From an uncultured virus (IMG/VR IMGVR_UViG_3300030688_000021) (taxonomy: Duplodnaviria > Heunggongvirae > Uroviricota > Caudoviricetes): a DNA stretch of 20,000 nt. A program made the position numbers and the translations under genes. Each line of letters starts with the position of its first letter. Positions within the stretch are counted from its first letter, which is position 1. Under the pieces are notes generated by a model. That model searched no databases and was not told the DNA's origin. It saw nothing but the letters and a program-made list of their open reading frames with translations. Of this stretch, positions 1-16,136 are shown one piece after another. Location: IMG/VR virus record IMGVR_UViG_3300030688_000021, one strand, 5' to 3'.

Positions 1-474
1 GACATGGTTTCCGATGATGTTGTGCTGCTGGCCGACGCCGGCACTCAGCTGCTCATAGTCAGCGTCATAGCCGCATGATACTTCACGCTTACCATCCTCG
101 ATGTCCTTGATGGCTTGCAGGTCTGTGATCACGAGGTCGGCCAGCAGGCAATCCTCAAGCTCACCCTCTCCGCGGCGCACGTTTTGGACGTGGCCGACGG
201 AAAGTTCCTTCCAATTCTCTGGAGTGACGTCTTCCTCGGGATGGTCATTGACCGAGGCTTTGCCCTCGAACGACGCGATCGTCGCGGGGCTGAATAGCTC
301 TTCAGGAGTGCGGGTCACGCGGATCAGACCATCCTTCCCTGCGTCGACCGGAATTTCACCCTCAGCGTAGAGCATCGGGGCCGTGCTGGCGATTGGCACG
401 TCGTAGCAGATAAGGAAACCTTCGGGCGTGAATGCACGCTTGGAGCCGAATGAACCCTTGCTGTAAAACTTCAT
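1..474 (-). CDS. DUF2213 family putative prohead maturation protease/scaffold (runs off the window edge)
   Basis: Not in the ORF track; manual translation from ATG at 474: MKFYSKGSFGSKRAFTPEGFLICYDVPIASTAPMLY...RTPEELFSPATIASFEGKASVNDHP...ENWKELSVGHVQNVRRG...KREVSCGYDADY...IIGNHV. These are typical DUF2213 motifs. SD GGAGG upstream. Confidence 0.9.
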   Translation of the reverse strand, partial: MKFYSKGSFGSKRAFTPEGFLICYDVPIASTAPMLYAEGEIPVDAGKDGLIRVTRTPEELFSPATIASFEGKASVNDHPEEDVTPENWKELSVGHVQNVRRGEGELEDCLLADLVITDLQAIKDIEDGKREVSCGYDADYEQLSAGVGQQHNIIGNHV

Positions 475-632
475 TCCGACCCTCCAAGGTCTATTGCCCA
501 TCCGTAGAGGTATGGCGCCGCTGGGTATACCATAATTGGTGTGGTATGTACACTATTATTTGGTGCCAAACCAATAATTACTCACCAGACCAGCAGAGTG
601 GCCAGTGCTAGTGAGTAAAGGCCAAATACCCA

Positions 633-773
633 TCATTCAGGAGGCGTTGTGGCGTTCACGTTTGGCGCCTCAAACCCAGGCCAGCCTTCATCCACATCGA
701 AGCACTTCTCACACGGCGCACTGTCCACTGGACCAGCCGCGTGCTTACATCCGCAGCATCCTTGTTCCGTCAT
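633..773 (-). CDS. 46-aa Cys-rich small protein (CxxC...CxxC)
   Basis: Manual translation MTEQGCCGCKHAAGPVDSAPCEKCFDVDEGWPGFEAPNVNATTPPE; start overlaps the ART stop (ATGA at 770-773). Confidence 0.6.
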   Translation of the reverse strand: MTEQGCCGCKHAAGPVDSAPCEKCFDVDEGWPGFEAPNVNATTPPE

Positions 774-1456
774 AGTAGTTCCAGTACACAAGAATTTTTT
801 GTAAGTTTCAGAACCTTAAATTTGGACCCTTTATCCAAAAGGATTTCATTTTTCGTTCTGTTCTTTACTTCTCCGTCAAGGGGGATTGCCTTTGCCCCTT
901 TTGGTAGCTGAATAGTCATCCAATGAGTCAAAGAAGAACCCGTAACACTAGATTTATTTGTCGTAGTAGACATGAACCCCGCGTCACTCACCTCCCCATT
1001 TTTTGCTTGGGCGACGATCTTTGACCACGCTTCATTGTCAACGCCACGATAAACAGTCATGTCTTTCTGAAGGCTGGCCTTAGAAAAAGCATCGTCAAGA
1101 GATGAAATGGTTTGTTTCAAATGTTTTGAATTTCGGATCGGTGTCCCGGACGAGTATTTGCCTTTTTCCACGGACGTGCCATTGCGCAAATAGTCATTGA
1201 TTGGATAAGACCCGGACAGCGTGTATGTCTCCAGCGCTTGCTTATTGGATTTAGACAATTCATTTTTTGTAGTGGTTTTCTGTTCTGACGGTTTTGAGGC
1301 TTGGGTTAGCGGAGTGGTAATCTTAGATTTTGAACTTAGCCGGCCACCTGCGCCAGCTATCACTTTCCCGACTCCGTTCACCAACACATGCGAGCCTGTC
1401 ATGGTGATCCAGCGCTCAGAGTCATCAGTAGTGTGGACGTGGATGTGGGTAGTCAT
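770..1456 (-). CDS. ADP-ribosyltransferase, VIP2/C3-like R-S-E class, with N-terminal leader
   Basis: ALETYT...INDYLRNG, TVYRG, GFMSTT, IQLPKG, KNEILLDKGSKFKV; SD GAGGAG 6 nt upstream of ATG. Confidence 0.85.
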   Translation of the reverse strand: MTTHIHVHTTDDSERWITMTGSHVLVNGVGKVIAGAGGRLSSKSKITTPLTQASKPSEQKTTTKNELSKSNKQALETYTLSGSYPINDYLRNGTSVEKGKYSSGTPIRNSKHLKQTISSLDDAFSKASLQKDMTVYRGVDNEAWSKIVAQAKNGEVSDAGFMSTTTNKSSVTGSSLTHWMTIQLPKGAKAIPLDGEVKNRTKNEILLDKGSKFKVLKLTKNSCVLELL

Positions 1457-2209
1457 CTACAACTCCTCTGGGATGACCGGCTCTGGGTAGCACCGGCAAT
1501 TTGGGATACAGCCGGCATGCCCAGTCAACTTGTCAAGTGTTGGTGGGCTGTCCCAACGAACGAACTGCCCTGCCATTTTCTTGTGGGACGGTCTGACATC
1601 GTTATCCGATGACGTGCGCCAGATGTAGCCCGGAGACCCGATGCCCTGGGCCCGAGCTTGCATGAGTGAGGTCTGAGTCCGTCCAGTCTCTGTCCTGGCA
1701 ATTAGCGTTGCCCGACTCGCGGTGACATGGCCGGTCTCTAAAATCTCTTTGGCAACCTCTGCAGCCCGAGTAGAGTTGGTTAGTCCCTCGATCGTGAGCT
1801 TGTGCACTCGCTGCGCTGCCTCAATGGGGAGGCTGGTGATCAGGTCCACGTGCTGATCGAGAAGGCGGCGTAAACTCTGCCCACTGACTTCCTTGTCAAG
1901 CTCAGCGCGTAGAGCATTCGAAAGACCCTTGGTCTGGGCTTTCCAAGAGCGGCGGTCTTGGTGGTCGAGCTCAGCAATCAGTCGACCTGCAACAGACTCG
2001 GCCCAAGGCTTCAGCACCTCTGAATACCGCTCCAGAACCTGACTGATTTTTTCGGATGACTCAGCAGTCCCGACCGGGAAGCCCTTGACAATTCGGCCAA
2101 TCTCATGGGCGACCCGCCTCAACTCTCGCGCGTAACGCAGCTCCAAGCCCTTCGCGCGTTGGAAGTCGGCTCGTTGAGTCTTGGCGTCGTGAGTTGGGCG
2201 GAGGGGCAT
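1457..2209 (-). CDS. Phage Mu F-like / SPP1 gp7 minor head (head morphogenesis) protein
   Basis: RATLIARTETGR, YIWRTSSDNDVRPSH, GHAGCIPNCRCYPEP; located between portal and DUF2213. Confidence 0.92.
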   Translation of the reverse strand: MPLRPTHDAKTQRADFQRAKGLELRYARELRRVAHEIGRIVKGFPVGTAESSEKISQVLERYSEVLKPWAESVAGRLIAELDHQDRRSWKAQTKGLSNALRAELDKEVSGQSLRRLLDQHVDLITSLPIEAAQRVHKLTIEGLTNSTRAAEVAKEILETGHVTASRATLIARTETGRTQTSLMQARAQGIGSPGYIWRTSSDNDVRPSHKKMAGQFVRWDSPPTLDKLTGHAGCIPNCRCYPEPVIPEEL

Positions 2210-2212
2210 GGG

Positions 2213-2698
2213 TTAGTCCTTGTACACGTCGCCGCGCTTGGTGACCTGAATACGCTTCGGCGTGCTTGACGAGATTTCATCTTCATCGTCAATCTCGTAG
2301 ATCTTGGTATCCTCGCCACCAGGCAACTCATTACCAGGGCGGGCGGCCATCTCATACCGCTCGCCTTTGAAGTTAAGCGGGTTTGGCCAGTTGGAGGAAG
2401 CGGTTCCAAGGCGAGGGTCGACGTCCTTCGTGATCTTCATGATGGCGTCACGGGCGCGGGTCAGGGCGCAGGGAGCGGAGTCCCACATTTCATTCTTGGT
2501 GCGGTTCGCCTTCAGATATTCCTCAGCTTTTTGCTTGCCCTCGGGCGTGCGAGGGAACCGCTTAACAGTTCGACCACTGTCGCTCACGATGACCCAATTA
2601 TTTCCGGTATCAATAACCTCAGGACCGCTGTCCTTCGTCCCACCAATCTGCCCCATCGCGTCACGGATACGAGAGTAGGCATCTTTGTTCTGAGTCAT
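2213..2698 (-). CDS. Hypothetical 161-aa head-module protein with an internally repeated motif
   Basis: ATG at 2698 with GGAG upstream, just after the portal stop; the track's 2740 start overlaps the portal. Two RxRDA...TKD units. Confidence 0.7.
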   Translation of the reverse strand: MTQNKDAYSRIRDAMGQIGGTKDSGPEVIDTGNNWVIVSDSGRTVKRFPRTPEGKQKAEEYLKANRTKNEMWDSAPCALTRARDAIMKITKDVDPRLGTASSNWPNPLNFKGERYEMAARPGNELPGGEDTKIYEIDDEDEISSSTPKRIQVTKRGDVYKD

Positions 2699-2703
2699 CA
2701 CAT

Positions 2704-4608
2704 TCACTCCGAGGTCTTGACGGTTAACGGCTTTGCCCAATCATCGGACTTTAGCCAATCTTTGAACTGTTTGAGGGTTAGCACCTTCACGCCCATGATC
2801 CGGTCTTGGCCCTTGCCGTCGTGGTAGCTGGCGCAGTAGTCACGGATCGCAGAGCTTTGGTTAAAATAGCCGAGCATACACTTGTGCTCGTCGAACTCGC
2901 CGGTGCTCAGGTTGGCCTGGTCGATCACGTAGACCCTCTGGCTGTGGCGAAGAGGACCGACGAAGACATCCATACCTTCATCAGGGCCCTCAGCTGAACC
3001 GGTGCCTTCGACATAGCCGTAGTCGGCCGCCATCTTGGCATGCCAAGAACCGTCTCGAGCCTTACGAACCTCACCCTTGCCCGTCTCAATGACGAGAGGG
3101 AGCCCCTGGTAGTCGAGCTTAGTCATAGGCCTCGGCGCTTCGCCGTCATCTGGCATCGCCTCGTCCTTGATGCTACCGAGGTGACGCTGAGCTTCCTGGA
3201 TCCCAACAGGTTGCCCAGCGTCACCGGCACCTTCCTCCTCGCTGCCCATGGCCTGTTCAGCGTTCGGAGGAGGAGCACCCTTAGCAGCTGTGATGTCCTC
3301 ATCGGTGATGTTCGTCCAAATGCCGGTCTGGCGTGACGACTGCCGCAGCTCTTTGAGAGCCACGTCCTGAGTGACAAGACCAGACTCCCAAGCGCTTTGG
3401 ACCGTGGTCGTGACACCGGAAGCAACGTCTGCCTTCTCTTTGTCATTCGGCACCTTGAGGGAGCGGAAGGTGAAGGTCATGTCAGCAGGCGGGTCAATCC
3501 CAAGCTCTGAGCGGCACAGCAGGTCGAGGATCACGCCCATGGGTTGACGCAGGCGGGTATCCTGCTTACGACGGATCGACTCGTAATAGTTAGTCAAATC
3601 GGTCTCACCAGTGCTGAAACCAGCGGGTGACTGGCCAAACAGACGAACTAGGGGCACCTCAACTGCGCCGGAGATCTGTTCACCCATCTGCATGAGCACG
3701 TCACTCAGACCGGCGAAGGTGTAGGTCTCAGAGCTGAATTCATCTTCGGCGTCCAAAAGAGTGATGCTCTCGTTGGACTGCATGGACCTCATCATGTCCA
3801 TCTGTTTGAGTAGGCCGTTGAGGGCAGGACCACCCATCGCCACGGTCTCGCGCAGTGACTTGACCTTCAGGGTTCGTAGGTGGGCGCGGTAAACCAACTG
3901 CGCGGCGCCAAGCGTCGTAGAGTCAAAGGCGACGAGCCGGTCGTAAATGCGCTCGACCACGCTCTCACCCCAAAGCATCTCACCGAGCTTCTGGAAGTAG
4001 GGCAGGTCAAGGCCCTCGAAGCGGATGACGCGGCTGTAATGGATCTTCTCACGAGGAAGACCTGGAGCGTCGGCCACAACATTGTAGAACTTGGGCTTAC
4101 CCAGATGAGGGCCGTAATCCGTGACCAGGTCGTTGACGTCGGCTTGAACCATCCACCGGTCAAGAACCAACATGCCTTTGAACTGACCCTTCTTGATGCT
4201 GTCAGTGCGAAGGGGCTCGGCCATGCTCTGGTTTTCGATGAGGAAGACACCGATCGCGCCGCCAAACAGCCGAGACCAACGAATTGTGTTGGCAACGCCG
4301 TCCCACACTTTCTCCATCAGCGCCGACTGAAGCAATTCGATCTGGTCCGGCGGAAGTTGGGCCTGGATGTCGATACCCGCGCGGGTCATGTCTTCGGCTG
4401 GGGCATCCACCGCTTGGCCAATCAACCATGAACCACGGTACATCGCTTCGAGTTGCTGGCGATTGCGGGTGACGTAGTTGAAGCTATAGTTGGCCTGAGA
4501 CGCCAAGTTGTCAGCCCCAAGACCCACGCGAGCTTGGAAGTTGGTGAACCCATCGCGCGTCTTGGTCCCAGCACCGCGCCCTCGGTTCCTGATGGTTTTC
4601 CTGCTCAT
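2704..4608 (-). CDS. DUF1073-family portal protein with C-terminal InPase (inorganic pyrophosphatase-like) domain
   Basis: True start probably ATG 4608 (TAATG overlap with terL stop). Portal motifs LEAMYRGSW, RWSRLFGG, KIHYSR, PLVRLFGQSPAGFSTGETDLTNYYE. C-terminal GLPLVIE...W...YGYVEGT...DVFVG...VYVIDQ...GEFDEHKCMLG. Confidence 0.88.
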   Translation of the reverse strand: MSRKTIRNRGRGAGTKTRDGFTNFQARVGLGADNLASQANYSFNYVTRNRQQLEAMYRGSWLIGQAVDAPAEDMTRAGIDIQAQLPPDQIELLQSALMEKVWDGVANTIRWSRLFGGAIGVFLIENQSMAEPLRTDSIKKGQFKGMLVLDRWMVQADVNDLVTDYGPHLGKPKFYNVVADAPGLPREKIHYSRVIRFEGLDLPYFQKLGEMLWGESVVERIYDRLVAFDSTTLGAAQLVYRAHLRTLKVKSLRETVAMGGPALNGLLKQMDMMRSMQSNESITLLDAEDEFSSETYTFAGLSDVLMQMGEQISGAVEVPLVRLFGQSPAGFSTGETDLTNYYESIRRKQDTRLRQPMGVILDLLCRSELGIDPPADMTFTFRSLKVPNDKEKADVASGVTTTVQSAWESGLVTQDVALKELRQSSRQTGIWTNITDEDITAAKGAPPPNAEQAMGSEEEGAGDAGQPVGIQEAQRHLGSIKDEAMPDDGEAPRPMTKLDYQGLPLVIETGKGEVRKARDGSWHAKMAADYGYVEGTGSAEGPDEGMDVFVGPLRHSQRVYVIDQANLSTGEFDEHKCMLGYFNQSSAIRDYCASYHDGKGQDRIMGVKVLTLKQFKDWLKSDDWAKPLTVKTSE

Positions 4609-5843
4609 TACGCCATAGCTCCGAGTTTGGCGAACACGCCGACCGTGCTGCTGCGGCGGATATAACCGTCCAAAGCGTAGCGCAGGGCGTCCCACAGATG
4701 GTTGTTGGCATCGACGATCACGGGCAATACGTCACCGGTGTTCTGATCGACCTTGTACTTATACAGCGCGGCTTCCATAGTGAAGTGTTTGCAGCGCGGG
4801 TGGATAACGATCTTCGTGAAGCCCTTGAGGTGGGCAATGCCGTCCTCAATCGATCCAGGCCATTTGTCAGCGGGAGCAATGTTGAAGCCCTGGCGACGAA
4901 CGTAGCTGATGGTCTCAGGCCTCGCGTTATCGGCCTTGACTGGCCACTCTCTGGATTTCGGCACGGAGTCGAAGAAACCAGGGAGTTGCTCGAACTCTAC
5001 CCCGCGGCCATAGGCCTCATGGGTGACGTAAAGCGTGTTGTCCTGGATGTAGCACCGAACCATGACGGTCGGGTCTTGGGAAAAGCCCCAGTCCACCCCG
5101 TAGTAAGGTCTGACATCTTCAGGCTCAGAGAAATCATCGACGATGTAACGGCCTTTGAAGATGACAGCATCGCTGATCGTCCGGCAGTTGCCGTTCCAAA
5201 CCCAGTCATAGGCGTCGGGGTCCTTGGCCAACATATCCAGTCGCTCGTCATTGAGTACCTCAGGAAACCATGGGTTCCCATCGAAGTTGACCTTGACGAC
5301 GAGGGCGTTCTTCGGCGGGTTTATTACGAAGCGCTTCCAGGTCGAGGACTCAGAGTCATCGGGGTTAAAGGTCACCCAGATTTCCGAGTATTCCTTGCGG
5401 ATGGTGGGGATCAGGATCTGCCAGGACTCGGCGGATACCGACTGGGCTTCTTCGACCCAGCAGACGTCGATGCCCTCAGTCGACTTAATTTCATTGATGT
5501 TGCGGCGAAGGCCTTTGAACAGGAACTCAGACCCAGTCAACGGGCAAAGAATACTGTTCTTCGTGATGACGAAAAAAGAACTGAGGCCCAAGGCCTCAAT
5601 CTGGTCGCTCAACAGTTTGTGGACTGAGTCCGCGATGGACGTTTGAAATTCACGGACGCAGAGCACTCGGACCTTGCTGGTGTACGCGAGGCTGATCAGC
5701 ACCCGCGCGATGGTCCAGGACTTGGAGGAACCACGCCCACCGTAGAACACCTTGTAGCGGTGGTTCCGGTAGAGACCACGAAAGGCGCCTGGTACGTCGA
5801 GACCAATGTCTGGTTTTTTCTCGATGCAGGCGAGGGTCGTCAT
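4608..5843 (-). CDS. terL: Terminase large subunit, PBSX family
   Basis: Walker A YGGRGSSKS, Walker B CWVEEA, TFNP, nuclease GVDWGFSQDP and DANNHLWDALRYAL. Confidence 0.95.
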   Translation of the reverse strand: MTTLACIEKKPDIGLDVPGAFRGLYRNHRYKVFYGGRGSSKSWTIARVLISLAYTSKVRVLCVREFQTSIADSVHKLLSDQIEALGLSSFFVITKNSILCPLTGSEFLFKGLRRNINEIKSTEGIDVCWVEEAQSVSAESWQILIPTIRKEYSEIWVTFNPDDSESSTWKRFVINPPKNALVVKVNFDGNPWFPEVLNDERLDMLAKDPDAYDWVWNGNCRTISDAVIFKGRYIVDDFSEPEDVRPYYGVDWGFSQDPTVMVRCYIQDNTLYVTHEAYGRGVEFEQLPGFFDSVPKSREWPVKADNARPETISYVRRQGFNIAPADKWPGSIEDGIAHLKGFTKIVIHPRCKHFTMEAALYKYKVDQNTGDVLPVIVDANNHLWDALRYALDGYIRRSSTVGVFAKLGAMA

Positions 5844-6205
5844 TTCTTCTCAGAGGCCTCGACGAAGTTGACCACAAGCTTGGGAAGCATGGCGGCCATC
5901 TCAGCGGGAGACCCGTGCATGAAGGCGCCCTCAATGGCGACGGGGAGCTTGCGGTGCATGTAAGGCATCAGGAGCTCGGCGGCCCAGCGCTTCTCGACCA
6001 TGGGGGCGTCCTTGTCTCGCAGCACTGAAGCGGCAAATTCCAAGGGCGTGATGCCACCGGCCTTAACTGCCAGCGCTTGGCGCTGAGCGTCGGTCAGGCG
6101 GTTCTCCTTATGGAGCCCAGGTCCACCACGAGGACCCTGGGGCCGAACGCCTCGTAGCGTCACGGCGGGCATGTGGTCTACAGGTTCACGCTTTTTCCCG
6201 GCCAT
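5840..6205 (-). CDS. terS: Probable terminase small subunit
   Basis: Directly upstream of terL with ATGA overlap; TPLEF...AAELLMPYMHRKL motif typical of this small-terminase class; AGGAG SD. Confidence 0.7.
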   Translation of the reverse strand: MAGKKREPVDHMPAVTLRGVRPQGPRGGPGLHKENRLTDAQRQALAVKAGGITPLEFAASVLRDKDAPMVEKRWAAELLMPYMHRKLPVAIEGAFMHGSPAEMAAMLPKLVVNFVEASEKK

Positions 6206-6243
6206 GTGGTCTCCTTGTGGTTTGAGAATGCCCTGAAGTCTCC

Positions 6244-6273
6244 ACTATACCACGAATTGATATCGTCTGTAAA
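6244..6273 (-). promoter_or_regulatory. Sigma70-like promoter of the packaging/head operon
   Basis: Minus strand TTTACA-18 nt-TATAGT with extended -10 TG, about 40 nt upstream of terS. Confidence 0.6.
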
Positions 6274-6627
6274 CACGATTGTTGGACGGCCGGAAGCCCT
6301 TCCCTGCCCGGTTCTGGCTTAGTTTTGTGAAAATAGCTCTGTGGTTCATGTGGCCGGTCCTCTTTCATGGCGGTGAATTTGGGAGCGCCAGGGCCAAGCC
6401 CAAAGAATTGTGGTCTTTGACCACAAAACTAAGCTGCTACAAGCTACAGGGTTTCTCTATTTTCCTAGAAAAGGAAAGTAAAGATGGTAATTTAGATAGA
6501 TATAACCGTCCTTAGTAGGGTAATCTTAGAAGTACAAAGTGCTTGCTGTAGCGCACCGTGCACCGGGCTCAGCCCAAAGCCCCACAATCTTAAAAACTTC
6601 ATACCATTGCCGCCAAGAATTTTTCAG

Positions 6628-7459: not shown

Positions 7460-9565
7460 ATGCCCCCACGTAAACGCTCTACCGCTACACCTGCCGCCTC
7501 GTCTGAGGCCTATCGTCTGGCCTTGTTGAAGCTTGAGACCTCAGGCCTTGACCATGACGACTTTCGTCTGTTGAAGCTAGAAGCCATCGAAAACTCTACG
7601 ACCTGCTTCGCTCACTTCAATCCTGTAGCTGGGCTGAAGATCCCGTACCTTGACCCATGGGACCCCACAAAGCAGCTTTCGTTCCTCCCTAAGTGGCCGG
7701 TGTTCTATCGCCTCAGGTATCTGAAGGATCACGTGGGCTTCGAACAGGCCGGCGGCGGTAAGGTGACCAGGTACGTCCAAGAGCCGAACACCGGGGTCTG
7801 CGCCTATTTTCCCCAGAACGCCACCAGGCCTTGGGCCGAAGTCCTTAGTGATTGGCGAGAACCTCTCTTGATCACTGAGGGTGAGCTCAAGGCGGCCAAG
7901 GCCTGTCGAGAGGGATTTGCCACCATCGGTCTTGGTGGTGTGTTCAACTTCCGCTCCACAAAGGAAGGCGTGCCTTTCATCCGAGAGCTTGAGCGCGTGG
8001 TTTGGGCCAGACGAGCGGTGTACCTCGTCTTTGACTCTGACTTCCGCAACAACGAGCACGTCGTGCAAGCCATTAACATGCTGGCCGAAGAGCTCATGGA
8101 TCGTGGGGCTCTGCCCTTCTACGTTGCCCTCCCAGATGTGTACGAGGAGGAAGACAAAAAGACCGGTCTTGACGACTTCCTCATGGCCAACTCAAAGGCA
8201 GACCTTGCGCTGCTGCTTCACCAGGCTCAACCAATGACCATGGCCAAGGGCCTTTGGGCGTTGAACCAGCAGGTCGTCTACGTCCGAGACCCTGGCATGG
8301 TGGTCGTTAAGAAGACTGGCCAAAAAACCTCGCCCGACGCCTTTAAGAACCATTCATACTCGACCCAAACCTGCCACGAGTACACGTTCGGCCCCGATGG
8401 CAGTCCTAAGCTGACGAAGAAGTCGGCGTCGGCCAGTTGGCTCAAGTGGGAGTTCCGCGAAGAGGCGATTAAGCTGACCTACGCCCCAGGCAGGGAGATG
8501 TTCTGCCAGAATGAGCACGACGACCGCTGCTACAATACCTGGAAGGGTTGGGGCTGTGAGCCTAAGAAAGGGGACGTGAAGCCCTTCCTTAAGCTCGTTG
8601 ACCACCTGTTCACAGGAGCTGAGACCGAGCTGAAACGCCATTTCCTACGGTGGCTGGCCTATCCTTTGAAGTACCCGGGAATTAAGATGTTCAGCAGCTT
8701 CGTCATCCATGGCAAGGTGCATGGAACCGGCAAGTCCTTGTTGGGTGCCACGATGAGGAAGATCTACGGCACGAATTTTGCGAAGATCAATCAGAAGGAC
8801 CTTGAGCGTGACTACAACGACTGGGCCGAGAACAAGCAGTTTGTGCTAGGCGAAGAGATCACTGGCTCAAACAAGCGGAGCGAGGCTGACGCCCTCAAGG
8901 ACCTGATCACCCAGACCGAGATGCGGGTCAATGGGAAATACGTGCCGATCTATACGATCCCAGACGTCATCAACTACCTGTACACCTCCAACCATCCTGA
9001 CGCGTTCTTCCTTGAAGACGACGACCGACGCTTCAACGTCCACGAGGTTATCGTCGGCCCCATGGGCGAGGAATTCTACATCGACTATATGATGTGGCTG
9101 GATGGCGAGGGTCCTGGGGCTCTGTTCGATTATTTCATGAAGCTGGACCTCGGTGACTTCAACCCGACAGCTCCGGCCTTCAAGTCCGCCGCTAAAGAGC
9201 GTATGATCATGGACGGGAAGTCAGACCTTGGGGCTTGGGTCCACGAGCTCTTGGCCGACCCTGACAGCCTGTTGCGGGTTGGAGAGATCAAGCTTACCAA
9301 GGATCTGTACACCAACAAAGAGCTGCTTGACCTCTATGACCCGCTGGGGAAGACGAAGGTCTCAGCTCAAGGCATGGGGAACAACCTGAAGAAGGCTGGA
9401 GCTAGGCAGATCCTTGACGGAAAGCCAATCAGGGTCGGAGACGTGCAAGACCGGTTCTACGCAGTTCGGAACGTAGGTCGCTGGGCTGAGGCCACGGCTG
9501 CCGAGGTCAAGGCTCACTTAGCGCCAACGGCCGGGGGCAAGGCTGGGAAGAAAGGGAAGTACTGA
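7460..9565 (+). CDS. Primase-helicase (DUF3854 TOPRIM primase + DUF5906/SF3-type helicase)
   Basis: LLITEGELKA, LVFDSD, KTGLDDFL; Walker A HGTGKS, Walker B VLGEE, motif C TSN, DDRRF. Confidence 0.88.
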   Translation: MPPRKRSTATPAASSEAYRLALLKLETSGLDHDDFRLLKLEAIENSTTCFAHFNPVAGLKIPYLDPWDPTKQLSFLPKWPVFYRLRYLKDHVGFEQAGGGKVTRYVQEPNTGVCAYFPQNATRPWAEVLSDWREPLLITEGELKAAKACREGFATIGLGGVFNFRSTKEGVPFIRELERVVWARRAVYLVFDSDFRNNEHVVQAINMLAEELMDRGALPFYVALPDVYEEEDKKTGLDDFLMANSKADLALLLHQAQPMTMAKGLWALNQQVVYVRDPGMVVVKKTGQKTSPDAFKNHSYSTQTCHEYTFGPDGSPKLTKKSASASWLKWEFREEAIKLTYAPGREMFCQNEHDDRCYNTWKGWGCEPKKGDVKPFLKLVDHLFTGAETELKRHFLRWLAYPLKYPGIKMFSSFVIHGKVHGTGKSLLGATMRKIYGTNFAKINQKDLERDYNDWAENKQFVLGEEITGSNKRSEADALKDLITQTEMRVNGKYVPIYTIPDVINYLYTSNHPDAFFLEDDDRRFNVHEVIVGPMGEEFYIDYMMWLDGEGPGALFDYFMKLDLGDFNPTAPAFKSAAKERMIMDGKSDLGAWVHELLADPDSLLRVGEIKLTKDLYTNKELLDLYDPLGKTKVSAQGMGNNLKKAGARQILDGKPIRVGDVQDRFYAVRNVGRWAEATAAEVKAHLAPTAGGKAGKKGKY

Positions 9566-13154: not shown

Positions 13155-13481
13155 ATGATCAAACCCGAGCTACTCGCGGCATTGAAGGCTGCCAAGGGGT
13201 GGAGTTACGATCTTGGAACGGTGTTCCATAACGCCTTTCCCGATGTCCCGGTCGATAATGATGTAATGCCGTTGTGCCTAACATCGGTTGACGCCGCCCT
13301 GGCCTTTGCCGAGCGGATGTTGCCGGGGTGGTTCATAAAGCTGGAGATTTGGGCGGAATCGGCAAGCTGCCATATCGGGAAAAGCTGGTGGCCGGAGCAG
13401 ACAGCCCCCACCGTGCCGCTCGCCATCGTCATTGCCGTGGTCGAGGCGCTGACTGCGAATGAGGAAAGCAATGCTGATTGA
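13155..13481 (+). CDS. Hypothetical phage protein
   Basis: GAGG SD before ATG 13155; TSVDAALAFAERMLPG...APTVPLA motif common in phage accessory proteins. Confidence 0.6.
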   Translation: MIKPELLAALKAAKGWSYDLGTVFHNAFPDVPVDNDVMPLCLTSVDAALAFAERMLPGWFIKLEIWAESASCHIGKSWWPEQTAPTVPLAIVIAVVEALTANEESNAD

Positions 13482-14426: not shown

Positions 14427-14876
14427 TCAGGGCCGGGATAGGCGCGTTTTTCCTTCCTTTTTCTCCGGCGGTCCTTCCCGTTGCTGCTCGATGTACTGCT
14501 TCACGATTTCCAGCGGAGCGCCGCCGCAGGATGCAGCAAAATAGGACGGGCTCCAAAGGTGGTTGCCCCAGAGCTTGCGCTTTACCTCTGGGAAGTTCTG
14601 TTGCCGCAAGCGGCGACTGGAGACGCCTTTCAGGCTGTTCACCAGCTTGGAAAGCTGCACGGTGGGCGGATACTCGATGAGCAAATGAACATGGTCGTCC
14701 TCGCCGTTCACCTCCTTCAGCACCGCGTCAAACTCGGCGCAGACGCCGAGGAAGGCGTCTTTTAGCACGACATGAACACGATCTGTAAATACGCCTCTCC
14801 GGTATTTTGTGACGAAGACCAAGTGAACATGAAGCGCAAAAACAACGCTCCGCCCCCTACGGTATTCGGTATCCAT
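14427..14876 (-). CDS. tnpA: Y1 HUH transposase
   Basis: GGAGG SD; HLVFVTKYRR, EDDHVHLL, LWSPSYF, VKQYIEQQ. Confidence 0.95.
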   Translation of the reverse strand: MDTEYRRGRSVVFALHVHLVFVTKYRRGVFTDRVHVVLKDAFLGVCAEFDAVLKEVNGEDDHVHLLIEYPPTVQLSKLVNSLKGVSSRRLRQQNFPEVKRKLWGNHLWSPSYFAASCGGAPLEIVKQYIEQQREGPPEKKEGKTRLSRP

Positions 14877-14915
14877 TCGCTTGCCTCCATGAGTTAGACC
14901 TATTATACTCATGGC

Positions 14916-16136
14916 ATGGTTACGCTCAAGGCATACCGCTATCGCTTGTATCCAAGCGCCGAACAGGAAGCCCTGTTTCGGCAGACGGTCGGCTCGTGCC
15001 GGTTCGTCTACAATCTTTGCCTTGAGCAACGTCGCCTGGAATGGCATCGCAGCAATCCGCGACGCCTGACCGCCTATGACCAGATTAAGGAACTCCCGGC
15101 GCTCAAGGATGAAGCGCCCTGGCTGCGTGACGCTCCCAATCACCCGCTTCAGCAAGCGGTCGTCGATCTGGAAAAGGCGTTCAGGAATTTCTTCGACGGT
15201 CGCGCCAGCTTCCCGAAATTCCGCAAACGTGGTGACCGCGACAGCTTCCGCTATCCCGATCCGAAGCAATTCAAAATCACGGCGGAGCGGGTTTTCCTGC
15301 CCAAGGCCGGGTGGGTGGATTGGACCCAGCATCGCCCGATGGAAGGCAAGCCGAAAACGGCCACGGTCTGCCGTGAGGCGGATTGCTGGCATGTCTCGAT
15401 CCAATGCGAGATCGAGGCGGCGGATCCACTGCCTAATCTCGGCCCTGCCGTGGGAATCGACCTGGGAATTGCCAAGCCACTCGTCCTTTCGACCGGCGAA
15501 TTGGTCATGCTGCCGCGCACCAGCGAGAAGGAGCGGCGCAAGCTGGCAACCTTGCAACAGCGGTTGGCGCGGCGGGACAAAGGCTCCCAGAACCGGCGGA
15601 AGGCCAAGATGGCCGTTGCCCGGTTTCAGGCGAAATTGACGCGGCGGCGCAAGGATGCCGCCCACAAGGCGACGACGACAATTGCCAAAAACCACGGCCT
15701 TATCGTCGTCGAGGATCTGAAGGTGCGCAACATGACGGCCAGCGCGGCGGGAACCGTCGAGGAACCGGGCCGCAATGTCCGGGCCAAGGCAGGTCTCAAC
15801 CGCTCCATGCTGGATGTCGCGCCTTCGCAAATCCGCCAAATGCTGGAATACAAGGCGGCTTGGCATGGCTCCCGGCTTGTCGCTGTGCCTGCCGCCTACA
15901 CCAGCCAGCGATGCAGCGTCTGCGGCCACGTCCACAAGGATAACAGGCGGACGCAAGCCGAATTCCTGTGTCTGGAATGCGGCCACGCTGAAAACGCCGA
16001 CACCAACGCGGCGAAGAATATTCTCAGTCTTGGACTGAAAACCGGAGGACTTCCGGGGATGGCCTGTGAATCGAACCGCGTTAGCGGTCGGAAACAGGAA
16101 AAGCGGGCCGTGAGGCACCGAAGCTCGGCCCTTTAG
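14916..16136 (+). CDS. tnpB: RNA-guided endonuclease TnpB
   Basis: AYRYRLYP, RuvC GIDLG / VVEDL / NADTNAA, Zn finger CSVC...CLEC; all catalytic motifs intact. Confidence 0.95.
   Translation: MVTLKAYRYRLYPSAEQEALFRQTVGSCRFVYNLCLEQRRLEWHRSNPRRLTAYDQIKELPALKDEAPWLRDAPNHPLQQAVVDLEKAFRNFFDGRASFPKFRKRGDRDSFRYPDPKQFKITAERVFLPKAGWVDWTQHRPMEGKPKTATVCREADCWHVSIQCEIEAADPLPNLGPAVGIDLGIAKPLVLSTGELVMLPRTSEKERRKLATLQQRLARRDKGSQNRRKAKMAVARFQAKLTRRRKDAAHKATTTIAKNHGLIVVEDLKVRNMTASAAGTVEEPGRNVRAKAGLNRSMLDVAPSQIRQMLEYKAAWHGSRLVAVPAAYTSQRCSVCGHVHKDNRRTQAEFLCLECGHAENADTNAAKNILSLGLKTGGLPGMACESNRVSGRKQEKRAVRHRSSAL

Follow-up and report, generated by a model that had tools for sequence, protein, structure and literature searches.

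The first 4,608 bases of a 20,000-nucleotide stretch of DNA from an uncultured virus of the Caudoviricetes (IMG/VR record IMGVR_UViG_3300030688_000021; this whole stretch is referred to as the window) are the front half of a head-assembly module of the T1/PB1 type, consisting of a portal, a MuF protein, a variable gene slot and a DUF2213 protein in which a predicted protease is joined to a scaffold. In this module and its relatives we find an Asp-ending motif at the junction between leader and body of the capsid, cement and portal proteins which, narrowed to T-x-D↓ or R-D↓[AG] (the arrow marks the position directly behind the Asp), is a real feature of this phage group. The explanation that we modestly favor overall is a head module whose DUF2213 protease would cut after Asp and whose cargo would ride in the head. 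Comparative evidence suggests that the motif is probably the place at which DUF2213 cuts capsid, cement, portal and scaffold, and we give cleavage of the cargo encoded in the window itself somewhat less than an even chance.

We compared the window with about 115 related loci, assembled from a portal search of viral contigs (28 loci) and a search with a profile made from seven DUF2213 proteins (80 further loci). Family hidden Markov models (HMMs) built for this analysis were run on 117 sources and identified the portal in 98, MuF in 89, DUF2213 in 102, cement in 88 and capsid in 88 of them, and the order portal, MuF, DUF2213, cement, capsid was kept wherever these families co-occurred. Sister loci L002–L004 encode portals 98% identical to that of the window and retain the MuF, ADP-ribosyltransferase (ART), Cys-rich and DUF2213 genes. 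Just past base 1, outside the window, come the genes for the cement and major capsid proteins; these are supplied by loci L030, L032 and L035, in which DUF2213 is 97–100% identical to that of sister locus L004 and is accompanied by a 165-residue cement protein (PF22758/PF23982) and a major capsid protein (PF09950).

Among 84 aligned capsid proteins, 56 have at least nine residues ahead of one alignment column, with Asp there in 38 of the 56. Leaders ending in [RK]..[TF].D↓, such as IIRARTRD↓, LGRAYTRD↓ and IVRARTLD↓, were present in 31 of the 84, and 27 other capsid proteins begin no more than four residues from the junction column, as M-[LIK]-T-[FY]-D. The same type of leader was seen in 13 of 87 aligned cement proteins (e.g., RGRSYTRD↓VAYNYRMPAGF), while 61 begin at the junction, for instance as M-VAFTYRMPAGIPG in the clade of the window. 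We considered the Val that follows the cement leader as the true start codon and rejected this option, as the codon behind the Asp is GTC or GTT in L008 and L006; the cement leader is therefore translated and no artefact of start choice. Separately, cement leaders, and some capsid leaders, resemble signal peptides ahead of their RxRTxD end (e.g., MKKTVLATAVLALAAASAG), with a Lys-rich start and a hydrophobic Ala/Leu stretch that would be odd for proteins assembled in the cytoplasm; such leaders were noted at L066 7489–8094, L073 9386–10015, L052 9496–9950 and L008 15698–16297.

Capsid and cement leaders covary. Across the 11 loci with both leaders, the two proteins of a locus are identical at 50 of 77 P8–P2 positions, compared to a mean of 32.9 (standard deviation 3.0) when the pairing is shuffled, and none of 20,000 shuffles reached 50 (p ≤ 5e-5). 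At the five variable leader positions alone, 29 of 55 agree, versus 15.2 after shuffling, indicating that both leaders answer to a common phage-specific partner. In the portal family, 62 of 79 unique N-termini contain a conserved block, [SGA][FY]xN, preceded by a variable basic stretch. Asp stands directly ahead of this block in 59 of these 62 portals and Thr at P3 in 42, the TKTRD↓GFTNF of the window among them. Relative to expectation from composition, T.D is enriched 2.65-fold in DUF2213 proteins (529 observed, 200 expected), 2.06-fold in capsid, 1.40-fold in slot proteins and 1.09-fold in other genes of the loci, with the highest enrichment in the scaffold half of DUF2213.

The DUF2213 gene occupies bases 1–501 of the window (minus strand; PF09979, E = 3e-40), which encode the N-terminal 167 residues; the gene continues beyond the window edge, and the full protein has 472 residues in sister locus L004. 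A structure model of the N-terminal domain, derived from 67 sequences, reached a predicted local distance difference test (pLDDT) score of 91.6. Its top Foldseek match was the T4 gp21 protease (probability 0.97, E = 0.019), followed by herpesvirus proteases, and a structural aligner superposed 130 of 164 residues on gp21 (5jbl_B; Z = 11.6, root-mean-square deviation 2.7 Å), with lower scores for the varicella-zoster virus (Z = 8.6) and pseudorabies virus (Z = 8.5) proteases and values of about 5.5 for unrelated MCE-domain folds. H76, S131 and H155 are invariant in the 67 domains (alignment A3; H87, S142 and H166 in alignment A1), a spacing that we take to resemble the Ser-His-His triad of assemblin. 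By its modelled fold, the domain would thus be a Ser/His prohead protease of the gp21/assemblin type, and the assignment of DUF2213 as prohead protease in an earlier, sequence-only reading of this DNA holds at the level of fold and invariant His, Ser and His residues. The C-terminal half is acidic and scaffold-like, and the gene sits between portal/MuF and the capsid gene. The Pa193 gp24 chain in PDB entry 9b40_G matches the DUF2213 profile (E = 3.6e-82), and residues 286–326 of gp24 lie within the capsid vertices according to the available text on this phage. Two DUF2213 queries matched 518 and 368 phage records, respectively, and therapeutic phages of the T1-like and PB1-like kinds were among them. 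Of the named phages, Bordetella phage vB_BaM-IFTN9 came closest (48.7% identity across 72% of the DUF2213 protein). A full-text search of the DUF2213 literature, covering the accessible portions of these papers, found no mention of a cleavage rule, and term searches in the accessible text of papers on Pam3, Bas63, Milano and dwarf myoviruses gave nothing on capsid cleavage.

Virions of related phages have been solved, and T1 shares the Pfam module (DUF2213, PF09950, Phage_cement and PF06381). The cryo-electron microscopy (cryo-EM) model of the T1 capsid is given in the available text as residues 27–319 (PMC11945409). In the T1 capsid sequence, MTTKKFDEADKSNVEMYLIQAGVKQD26↓A27AATMG, the model start, Ala27, comes directly after Asp26. 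For E217, the available description states that the first 65 capsid residues are not visible and are possibly cleaved (PMC10329688), and the Pa193 capsid is likewise reported, in an excerpt, as modelled from residue 66 (PMC11456595); PDB chain 8frs_B contains 317 residues, 66–382. The PB1 capsid reads GSAMD64-S65-N66, placing the E217/Pa193 model start (66) after Asp64-Ser65 of the PB1 sequence. The PB1 portal (SVAMD↓S) and the PB1 DUF2213 protein (HRAMD↓S) carry what is another phage-specific Asp-ending motif. In the portions of the Pa193 report available, portal residues 1–93 yielded neither density nor peptides in mass spectrometry coupled to liquid chromatography (LC-MS), and gp20 and gp21, whose genes lie between those for portal and DUF2213, were identified by LC-MS in virions together with gp24. 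The first 30 capsid residues are also missing in XM1, for which the accessible text proposes a different gene as protease. These virion data are compatible with cleavage after Asp, although they fall short of proof.

Together, these observations suggest the following sequence of events, of which cleavage, packaging and injection are steps that we infer. The DUF2213 protease would act inside the prohead, cutting after Asp in a Thr-x-Asp context that is here mostly [T/R]-R-D↓[A/G]. The capsid protein would lose a 16-residue leader (MHTPKKPGLIRARTRD↓A) and the portal its basic 19-residue N-terminus, and the protease would dismantle its own scaffold half at KGRD↓A and KKTRD↓A. Less certainly, an inorganic-pyrophosphatase-like (InPase) domain would be freed from the portal tail, a 161-residue protein would be split at two conserved linkers, and 8 and 11 residues would be trimmed from MuF and ART, respectively; once released, InPase, ART and the small modules could leave the head together with the DNA. 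Sites that this scheme would use in the clade of the window are LIRARTRD↓A in the capsid, TKTRD↓G in the portal (TKTHD↓G in sisters), PTHD↓A in MuF (LTRD↓A in sisters), KGRD↓A (whose Asp does not vary in alignment A1) and KKTRD↓A in the scaffold half of DUF2213, and SRIRD↓A and TRARD↓A in the 161-residue protein. The sequence-only reading had proposed that Asp-ending motifs shared by the larger head products are DUF2213 cleavage or targeting sites. The junction motif, the protease fold and the start of the T1 model support this view, and the core T-x-D↓ / R-D↓[AG] indeed recurs in the head proteins of relatives; the motif as originally drawn was too loose, however, and several of the instances listed for it are weak.

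The portal gene (2704–4608, minus strand; PF06381, E = 8.9e-104; PHROG 146, portal) encodes 634 amino acids, including a C-terminal InPase domain, from an ATG at 4606–4608. This ATG overlaps the stop of the large terminase gene (ATGA), and the portal numbering, with an Asp at about residue 19, is therefore correct. The basic N-terminal leader, MSRKTIRNRGRGAGTKTRD (4552–4608, minus strand), ends in T-R-D directly before the conserved GFTNF. The InPase domain, of type I (2749–3126, minus strand; PF18823, E = 1.2e-29, residues 524–649 of the long open reading frame (ORF)), is connected by an acidic, Gly/Pro-rich linker (3127–3396, minus strand), delineated by alignment of portal C-termini, that contains SIKD↓E (Asp codon 3163–3165) and MTKLD↓Y. 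Both of these sites are degenerate, whereas the same linker holds canonical sites in relatives (RARTRD↓Y in L005, KQRTRD↓S in L008). The fusion architecture was also found in L005, L006, L008, L053 and L069, and a portal search of genome contigs gave matches limited to the InPase domain, in Planctomycetes and Bacteroidales genomes. In more distant relatives (L027 7504–9284; L010 11578–12027), InPase is a stand-alone gene of the head module, and L027 encodes a 458-residue protein with a C-terminal ART domain directly behind the portal; effector domains are thus reshuffled between fused and free forms.

The 161-residue protein (2213–2698, minus strand) is an orphan without a Pfam or PHROG family built from two small modules with a conserved linker ahead of each: YSRIRD↓AMGQIGGTKD↓S (linker 1; 2630–2677, minus strand) and SAPCALTRARD↓AIMKITKD↓V (linker 2; 2423–2479, minus strand). 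A word-index search among 5.8 billion clustered proteins returned only the query itself, and a full HMMER search identified three real relatives; matches in large repeat proteins (fn3, TPR and MBG) were rejected as spurious. The C-terminal module recurs in two distant relatives, P0002 and P0004. Both linkers recur in P0007, a different slot protein from a sister phage, while the modules between them differ; the P0007 counterparts are ASRITDAMGKIKGTKDA for linker 1 and SAPCAMTRARDAMAKITKDA for linker 2, and the shared linkers read SRI[RT]DAMGxIxGTKD and SAPCA[LM]TRARDA[IM]xKITKD. D23 (TKD↓S) and D84 (ARD↓A) are invariant in the alignment of four sequences (A5), and linker 2 resembles the end of the capsid leader in the same phage clade, LIRARTRD↓A. 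Comparison with relatives gives no backing to a further site in this protein, NKD↓A. A structure model of low quality (pLDDT 52.7) was set aside, except that it places the RD↓A sites in predicted helices. In a survey of cargo variability, sister loci L002–L004 were found to hold a different protein, of 244/264 residues, in place of the 161-residue protein. When window 2213–2698 is set against L003 11851–12645, modules are swapped between fixed joints in phages with 98% identical portals.

Downstream lie MuF and ART. MuF, an SPP1 gp7-like minor head protein (1457–2209, minus strand; PF04233, E = 1.5e-16; PHROG 324, head morphogenesis), begins with the eight residues MPLRPTHD↓A (2186–2209, minus strand), in which THD↓A is replaced by TRD↓A in a 98% identical sister (MPLTLTRD↓A). 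Overall, 13 of 52 unique MuF N-termini contain T-x-D in the first 40 residues, mostly inside the first 12. The ART gene (770–1456, minus strand; 228 residues, ART domain approximately 797–1276; PF03496, E = 9.6e-26; PHROG 3895) starts with MTTHIHVHTTD↓D (residues 1–11; 1424–1456, minus strand), and three homologues have RRD↓S, RHD↓A and RGD↓A in the TTD↓D column. In P0014, an ART homologue of 375 residues, the same helical linker (...AKLDAA..RIDSIVR.AR.D↓) stands on either side of the ART domain, an arrangement that, to judge from the sequence, suggests a cassette with a joint at each end. The leaders of MuF (8 residues), ART (11 residues) and portal (19 residues) of the window have only T-x-D in common.

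MuF and ART are in frame, with a single stop codon between them that abuts the ART ATG (1454–1462, minus strand); the window has TAG at this place, and the 98% identical sister L003 has TAA (13399–13404). A PHROG 595 match covers MuF plus ART, and coupling of the two by reinitiation or low-level readthrough is possible. No MuF-fused ART was found among the longer ART homologues, which is weak evidence. MuF and the toxin domain are thus not present in one polypeptide here, and because the in-frame stop divides them, the pair is a split relative of the MuF polymorphic toxins and no member by architecture. The ART 3' end is overlapped by 22 nucleotides by a Cys-rich ORF (633–791, minus strand; 52 residues, or 46 from the ATG at 773; ORF list, no Pfam or PHROG family) that is conserved in L003 and L004. 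According to the available text of PMC5576092, 89.4% of 191 MuF toxin genes have a small ORF behind them. The InPase domain, the 161-residue ORF, the ART and the Cys-rich ORF that the sequence-only reading had placed as cargo between portal and DUF2213 were all recovered (Pfam, PHROGs, ORF list), but, by analogy with the accessible account of MuF-linked toxins (PMC5576092), a possible immunity gene is a better reading of the Cys-rich peptide than cargo. It is a candidate immunity protein or zinc ribbon, and together with the ART it may be a MuF polymorphic toxin in split form. Head modules repeatedly contain small Cys-rich, zinc-ribbon-like ORFs (L005 4457–4639, L006 2094–2405, window 633–791), at varying positions behind portal or ART and without detectable mutual similarity.

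Capsid-type leaders also occur on slot proteins of relatives. We scored them with an 8-residue matrix trained solely on capsid and cement leaders of relatives, which at a threshold of 14 gave 46 forward matches versus 1 on reversed sequences. A 525-residue slot protein of L034, which starts MHHQLTKLNRVRARTRD↓AVPF, scored 22.3, and a 175-residue protein adjoining MuF in L049 (RGRARTRD↓G) scored 23.1; neither has a match in PHROGs. The matrix also picked out RARTRD↓Y and KQRTRD↓S in the portal-InPase linkers of L005 and L008. The L034 protein (3321–4898) bears the leader RVRARTRD↓A and repeats resembling a right-handed beta-helix, lacks a Pfam family, and is possibly a large head cargo or an unusual head-associated enzyme. 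Within the first 40 residues, [RK]..T.D was present in 6 of 142 unique slot proteins versus 8 of 1,189 other ORFs (Fisher p = 0.0019). As a tentative extension, for which we see about one chance in three, DUF2213 proteins would be Asp-specific prohead proteases in general, and T-x-D↓ / R-D↓A in helical linkers would serve as portable load-and-cut joints, with the domains behind them packed, freed and ejected. Possible examples, equally tentative, are the portal-tail InPase, the small modules within the 161-residue protein, the ART and the beta-helix-like L034 protein. Portable joints would account for joints being kept while modules swap, even among phages with 98% identical portals.

Several observations weigh against processing at these sites, and three rival explanations were considered. 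The Asp-ending motifs could be docking or structural elements that are never cut, acting in targeting, scaffold binding or N-arm contacts, with leaders that are retained and disordered in the maps. The capsid N-terminus carries up to three tandem T-x-D (TRD, TFD and TVD), and the latter two, which belong to the conserved N-arm of the mature capsid, have D in 61 and 58 of 78 unique sequences, such that the Asp may be structural or for docking and the cut may fall at any of the three sites. The Asp ahead of [SGA][FY]xN is, in the same vein, part of a conserved portal block, and covariation within a phage suits a common binding partner as well as a protease. Missing cryo-EM density may equally mean disorder, an alternative that the E217 authors allow for the unseen capsid N-terminus in the available text (PMC10329688), and the PB1-type site lacks Thr (AMD↓S), so that only the P1 Asp is general. 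Uncut elements would leave unexplained, however, that, in two unrelated families, homologues without a leader begin precisely at the junction, that the T1 model begins right behind Asp26, and that no peptides are listed for Pa193 portal residues 1–93 in the accessible report. The neighboring gene, moreover, encodes a protein of gp21/assemblin fold with invariant Ser and His residues, and T.D peaks in its scaffold half. On this evidence we regard docking without cleavage as unlikely. Three features of the data bear on any reading that includes processing: the capsid and cement proteins of this phage lie outside the window and were read from L030/L032/L035-type loci, ORF starts follow the longest-ORF rule, and homologous sequences are non-independent samples.

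For the window itself, a second explanation is that its motifs are mostly chance and that the enzymes enter the head by fusion or binding, without proteolysis: the InPase would stay on the portal crown, the ART would be bound to MuF as a split toxin, and the Cys-rich ORF would encode an immunity protein. About nine motif strings had been listed in the sequence-only reading, and each is present in the protein named for it. The expected excess in head over other proteins was weakly present for a loose pattern, [KRHT]D[AGSVED] (14 in 1,486 head-module residues versus 13 in 3,553 residues of 16 other ORFs, Fisher p = 0.018; 11 of the 14 fall in the portal and the 161-residue protein), and failed to appear for [TS]xD[ASG] (4 of 1,486 versus 4 of 3,553, p = 0.25). 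The portal and the 161-residue protein together contain four RD[AG], against one across the remaining ORFs of a greedy gene set. Taken alone, this enrichment is weak. The window's own sites all score below 2 by the leader matrix and match just a 2–3-residue core, and we therefore narrowed the claim to the T-x-D / R-D core. That MuF and ART are in frame with a single stop between them also suits entry by binding, as does the fact that the available texts of PMC5512222 and PMC5576092 describe portal-InPase fusions and MuF-ART toxins with a small ORF without invoking cleavage. Chance would nevertheless have to accommodate the invariance of D23 and D84, linkers kept in the 161-residue protein despite swapped flanking modules, alignment of the ART leader Asp with RRD↓S, RHD↓A and RGD↓A, the linker on both sides of the P0014 ART domain, and canonical RTRD↓ in the portal-InPase linker of relatives; we consider this explanation doubtful. 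In a third, the interval from portal to DUF2213 would be a recombination hotspot, and its genes would be morons or selfish inserts that act in the infected or lysogenic cell and are never packaged. Strong leaders were found in just 2 of about 150 slot proteins, and the 63 slot-region proteins of relatives that were scanned include HNH, GIY-YIG, FkbM and Dam methyltransferase, Wzy_C, Tlde1, SASA and bPH_2 domains; the slot also houses MuF-DUF6883 fusions and membrane proteins. Homing endonucleases, methyltransferases and membrane proteins thus gather in this slot as in a general hotspot, and position alone is no proof of packaging. The outright replacement of the 161-residue slot in 98% identical phages points the same way. 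MuF is, in contrast, a known head component in the available text of PMC5576092 and PMC5512222, the InPase is covalently joined to the portal here, Pa193 gp20 and gp21 were found in virions by LC-MS in the accessible report, and two slot proteins bear perfect capsid-type leaders. Genes that are never packaged therefore seem the least probable of these alternatives, and improbable in their own right.

The head genes are part of a single minus-strand operon spanning bases 1–6205 (ORF list, Pfam, PHROGs), which opens with the small (TerS, 5840–6205) and large (TerL, 4608–5843) terminase genes, both on the minus strand and assigned as a terminase pair by Pfam (PF04466/PF17288) and PHROG terminase families. 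A megablast of window 1–6300 against phage records gave no match, and the nearest record, G001, overlaps only window 5327–6300. Elsewhere in the window we observed a primase-helicase (DUF3854 plus DUF5906/VapE-like; 7460–9565), a phage lysozyme (PF00959; 19489–19947) and, at 14427–16136, an IS200/IS605-type element inside the phage genome, with a Y1 transposase domain (PF01797) at the end of the minus-strand ORF 14427–16118 and, on the plus strand, a TnpB/OrfB_IS605 gene (14916–16136) that includes a Cas12f-like TNB domain. No tRNA gene was found in the window, and no integrase was seen within its 20 kb.

Prohead proteases with defined cleavage rules, such as T4 gp21 and phiKZ gp175, have allowed the prediction of packed and injected proteins. 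If true, a P1-Asp rule would give mature N-termini for models of capsid, cement and portal, would let head cargo (counter-defence enzymes and toxins, for example) be predicted purely from sequence, and would offer a tag for putting foreign proteins into the capsids of laboratory phages. DUF2213 is widespread, yet structural papers, in the text available, call the DUF2213 protein a scaffold only (Pa193) or seek the protease elsewhere (XM1); in the accessible part of the Pa193 paper, gp24 figures solely as a scaffold and the term protease is absent.

The head module of T1 (gp52 portal, gp51 MuF, gp50 DUF2213 protease, gp49 cement, gp47 capsid) contains the same Pfam families in the same order as that of the window, as does the Pbunavirus module (PB1, E217 and Pa193, in which gp24 is annotated as 'scaffolding protein'), where DUF2213 also has a C-terminal scaffold part. 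In both T1 and Pbunavirus the capsid N-terminus is unseen in maps up to a residue behind an Asp, although the site itself differs: KQD↓A in T1, AMD↓S in PB1 and T-R-D↓A in the clade of the window. The annotated T1 and PB1 regions lack a portal-InPase fusion and an ART, and their portals have 427 (T1) and 769 (PB1) residues. The T4 gp21 protease, which has the consensus [L/I]-x-Glu↓ and is accompanied by capsid-targeting sequences on Alt and the internal proteins, shares the protease fold of DUF2213 (Z = 11.6). The proposed processing would follow the T4 logic in its acidic P1 and P3 determinant, and possibly in short N-terminal leaders on candidate head cargo that includes an ART. Departures from T4 are Asp at P1 in place of Glu, Thr at P3 in place of Leu/Ile, a protease joined to the scaffold in one protein, and cargo attached via portal and MuF as well. 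The ART of the window belongs to PF03496 and has only a partial match to the Alt-like PHROG 802 (E = 4.8e-10); packaging of T4 Alt is cited in the available text of PMC5512222. In their accessible parts, Iyer et al. 2017 (PMC5512222) describe portal-fused InPase, e.g., BcepF1.124, and Jamet et al. 2017 (PMC5576092) describe MuF-linked ART toxins of temperate phages with a small putative immunity ORF, both proposing delivery with the DNA. The idea of virion-delivered, MuF- or portal-linked enzymes is thus already in print in these two papers, as far as their available text goes, and that text describes neither an Asp-ending processing motif nor a link between DUF2213 and cargo release. The window matches the polyvalent proteins in the fusion of InPase to the portal, and it matches the MuF polymorphic toxins in placing MuF beside an ART toxin domain with a small ORF downstream, whereas those toxins are fused and the MuF and ART of the window are two in-frame ORFs split by a stop.

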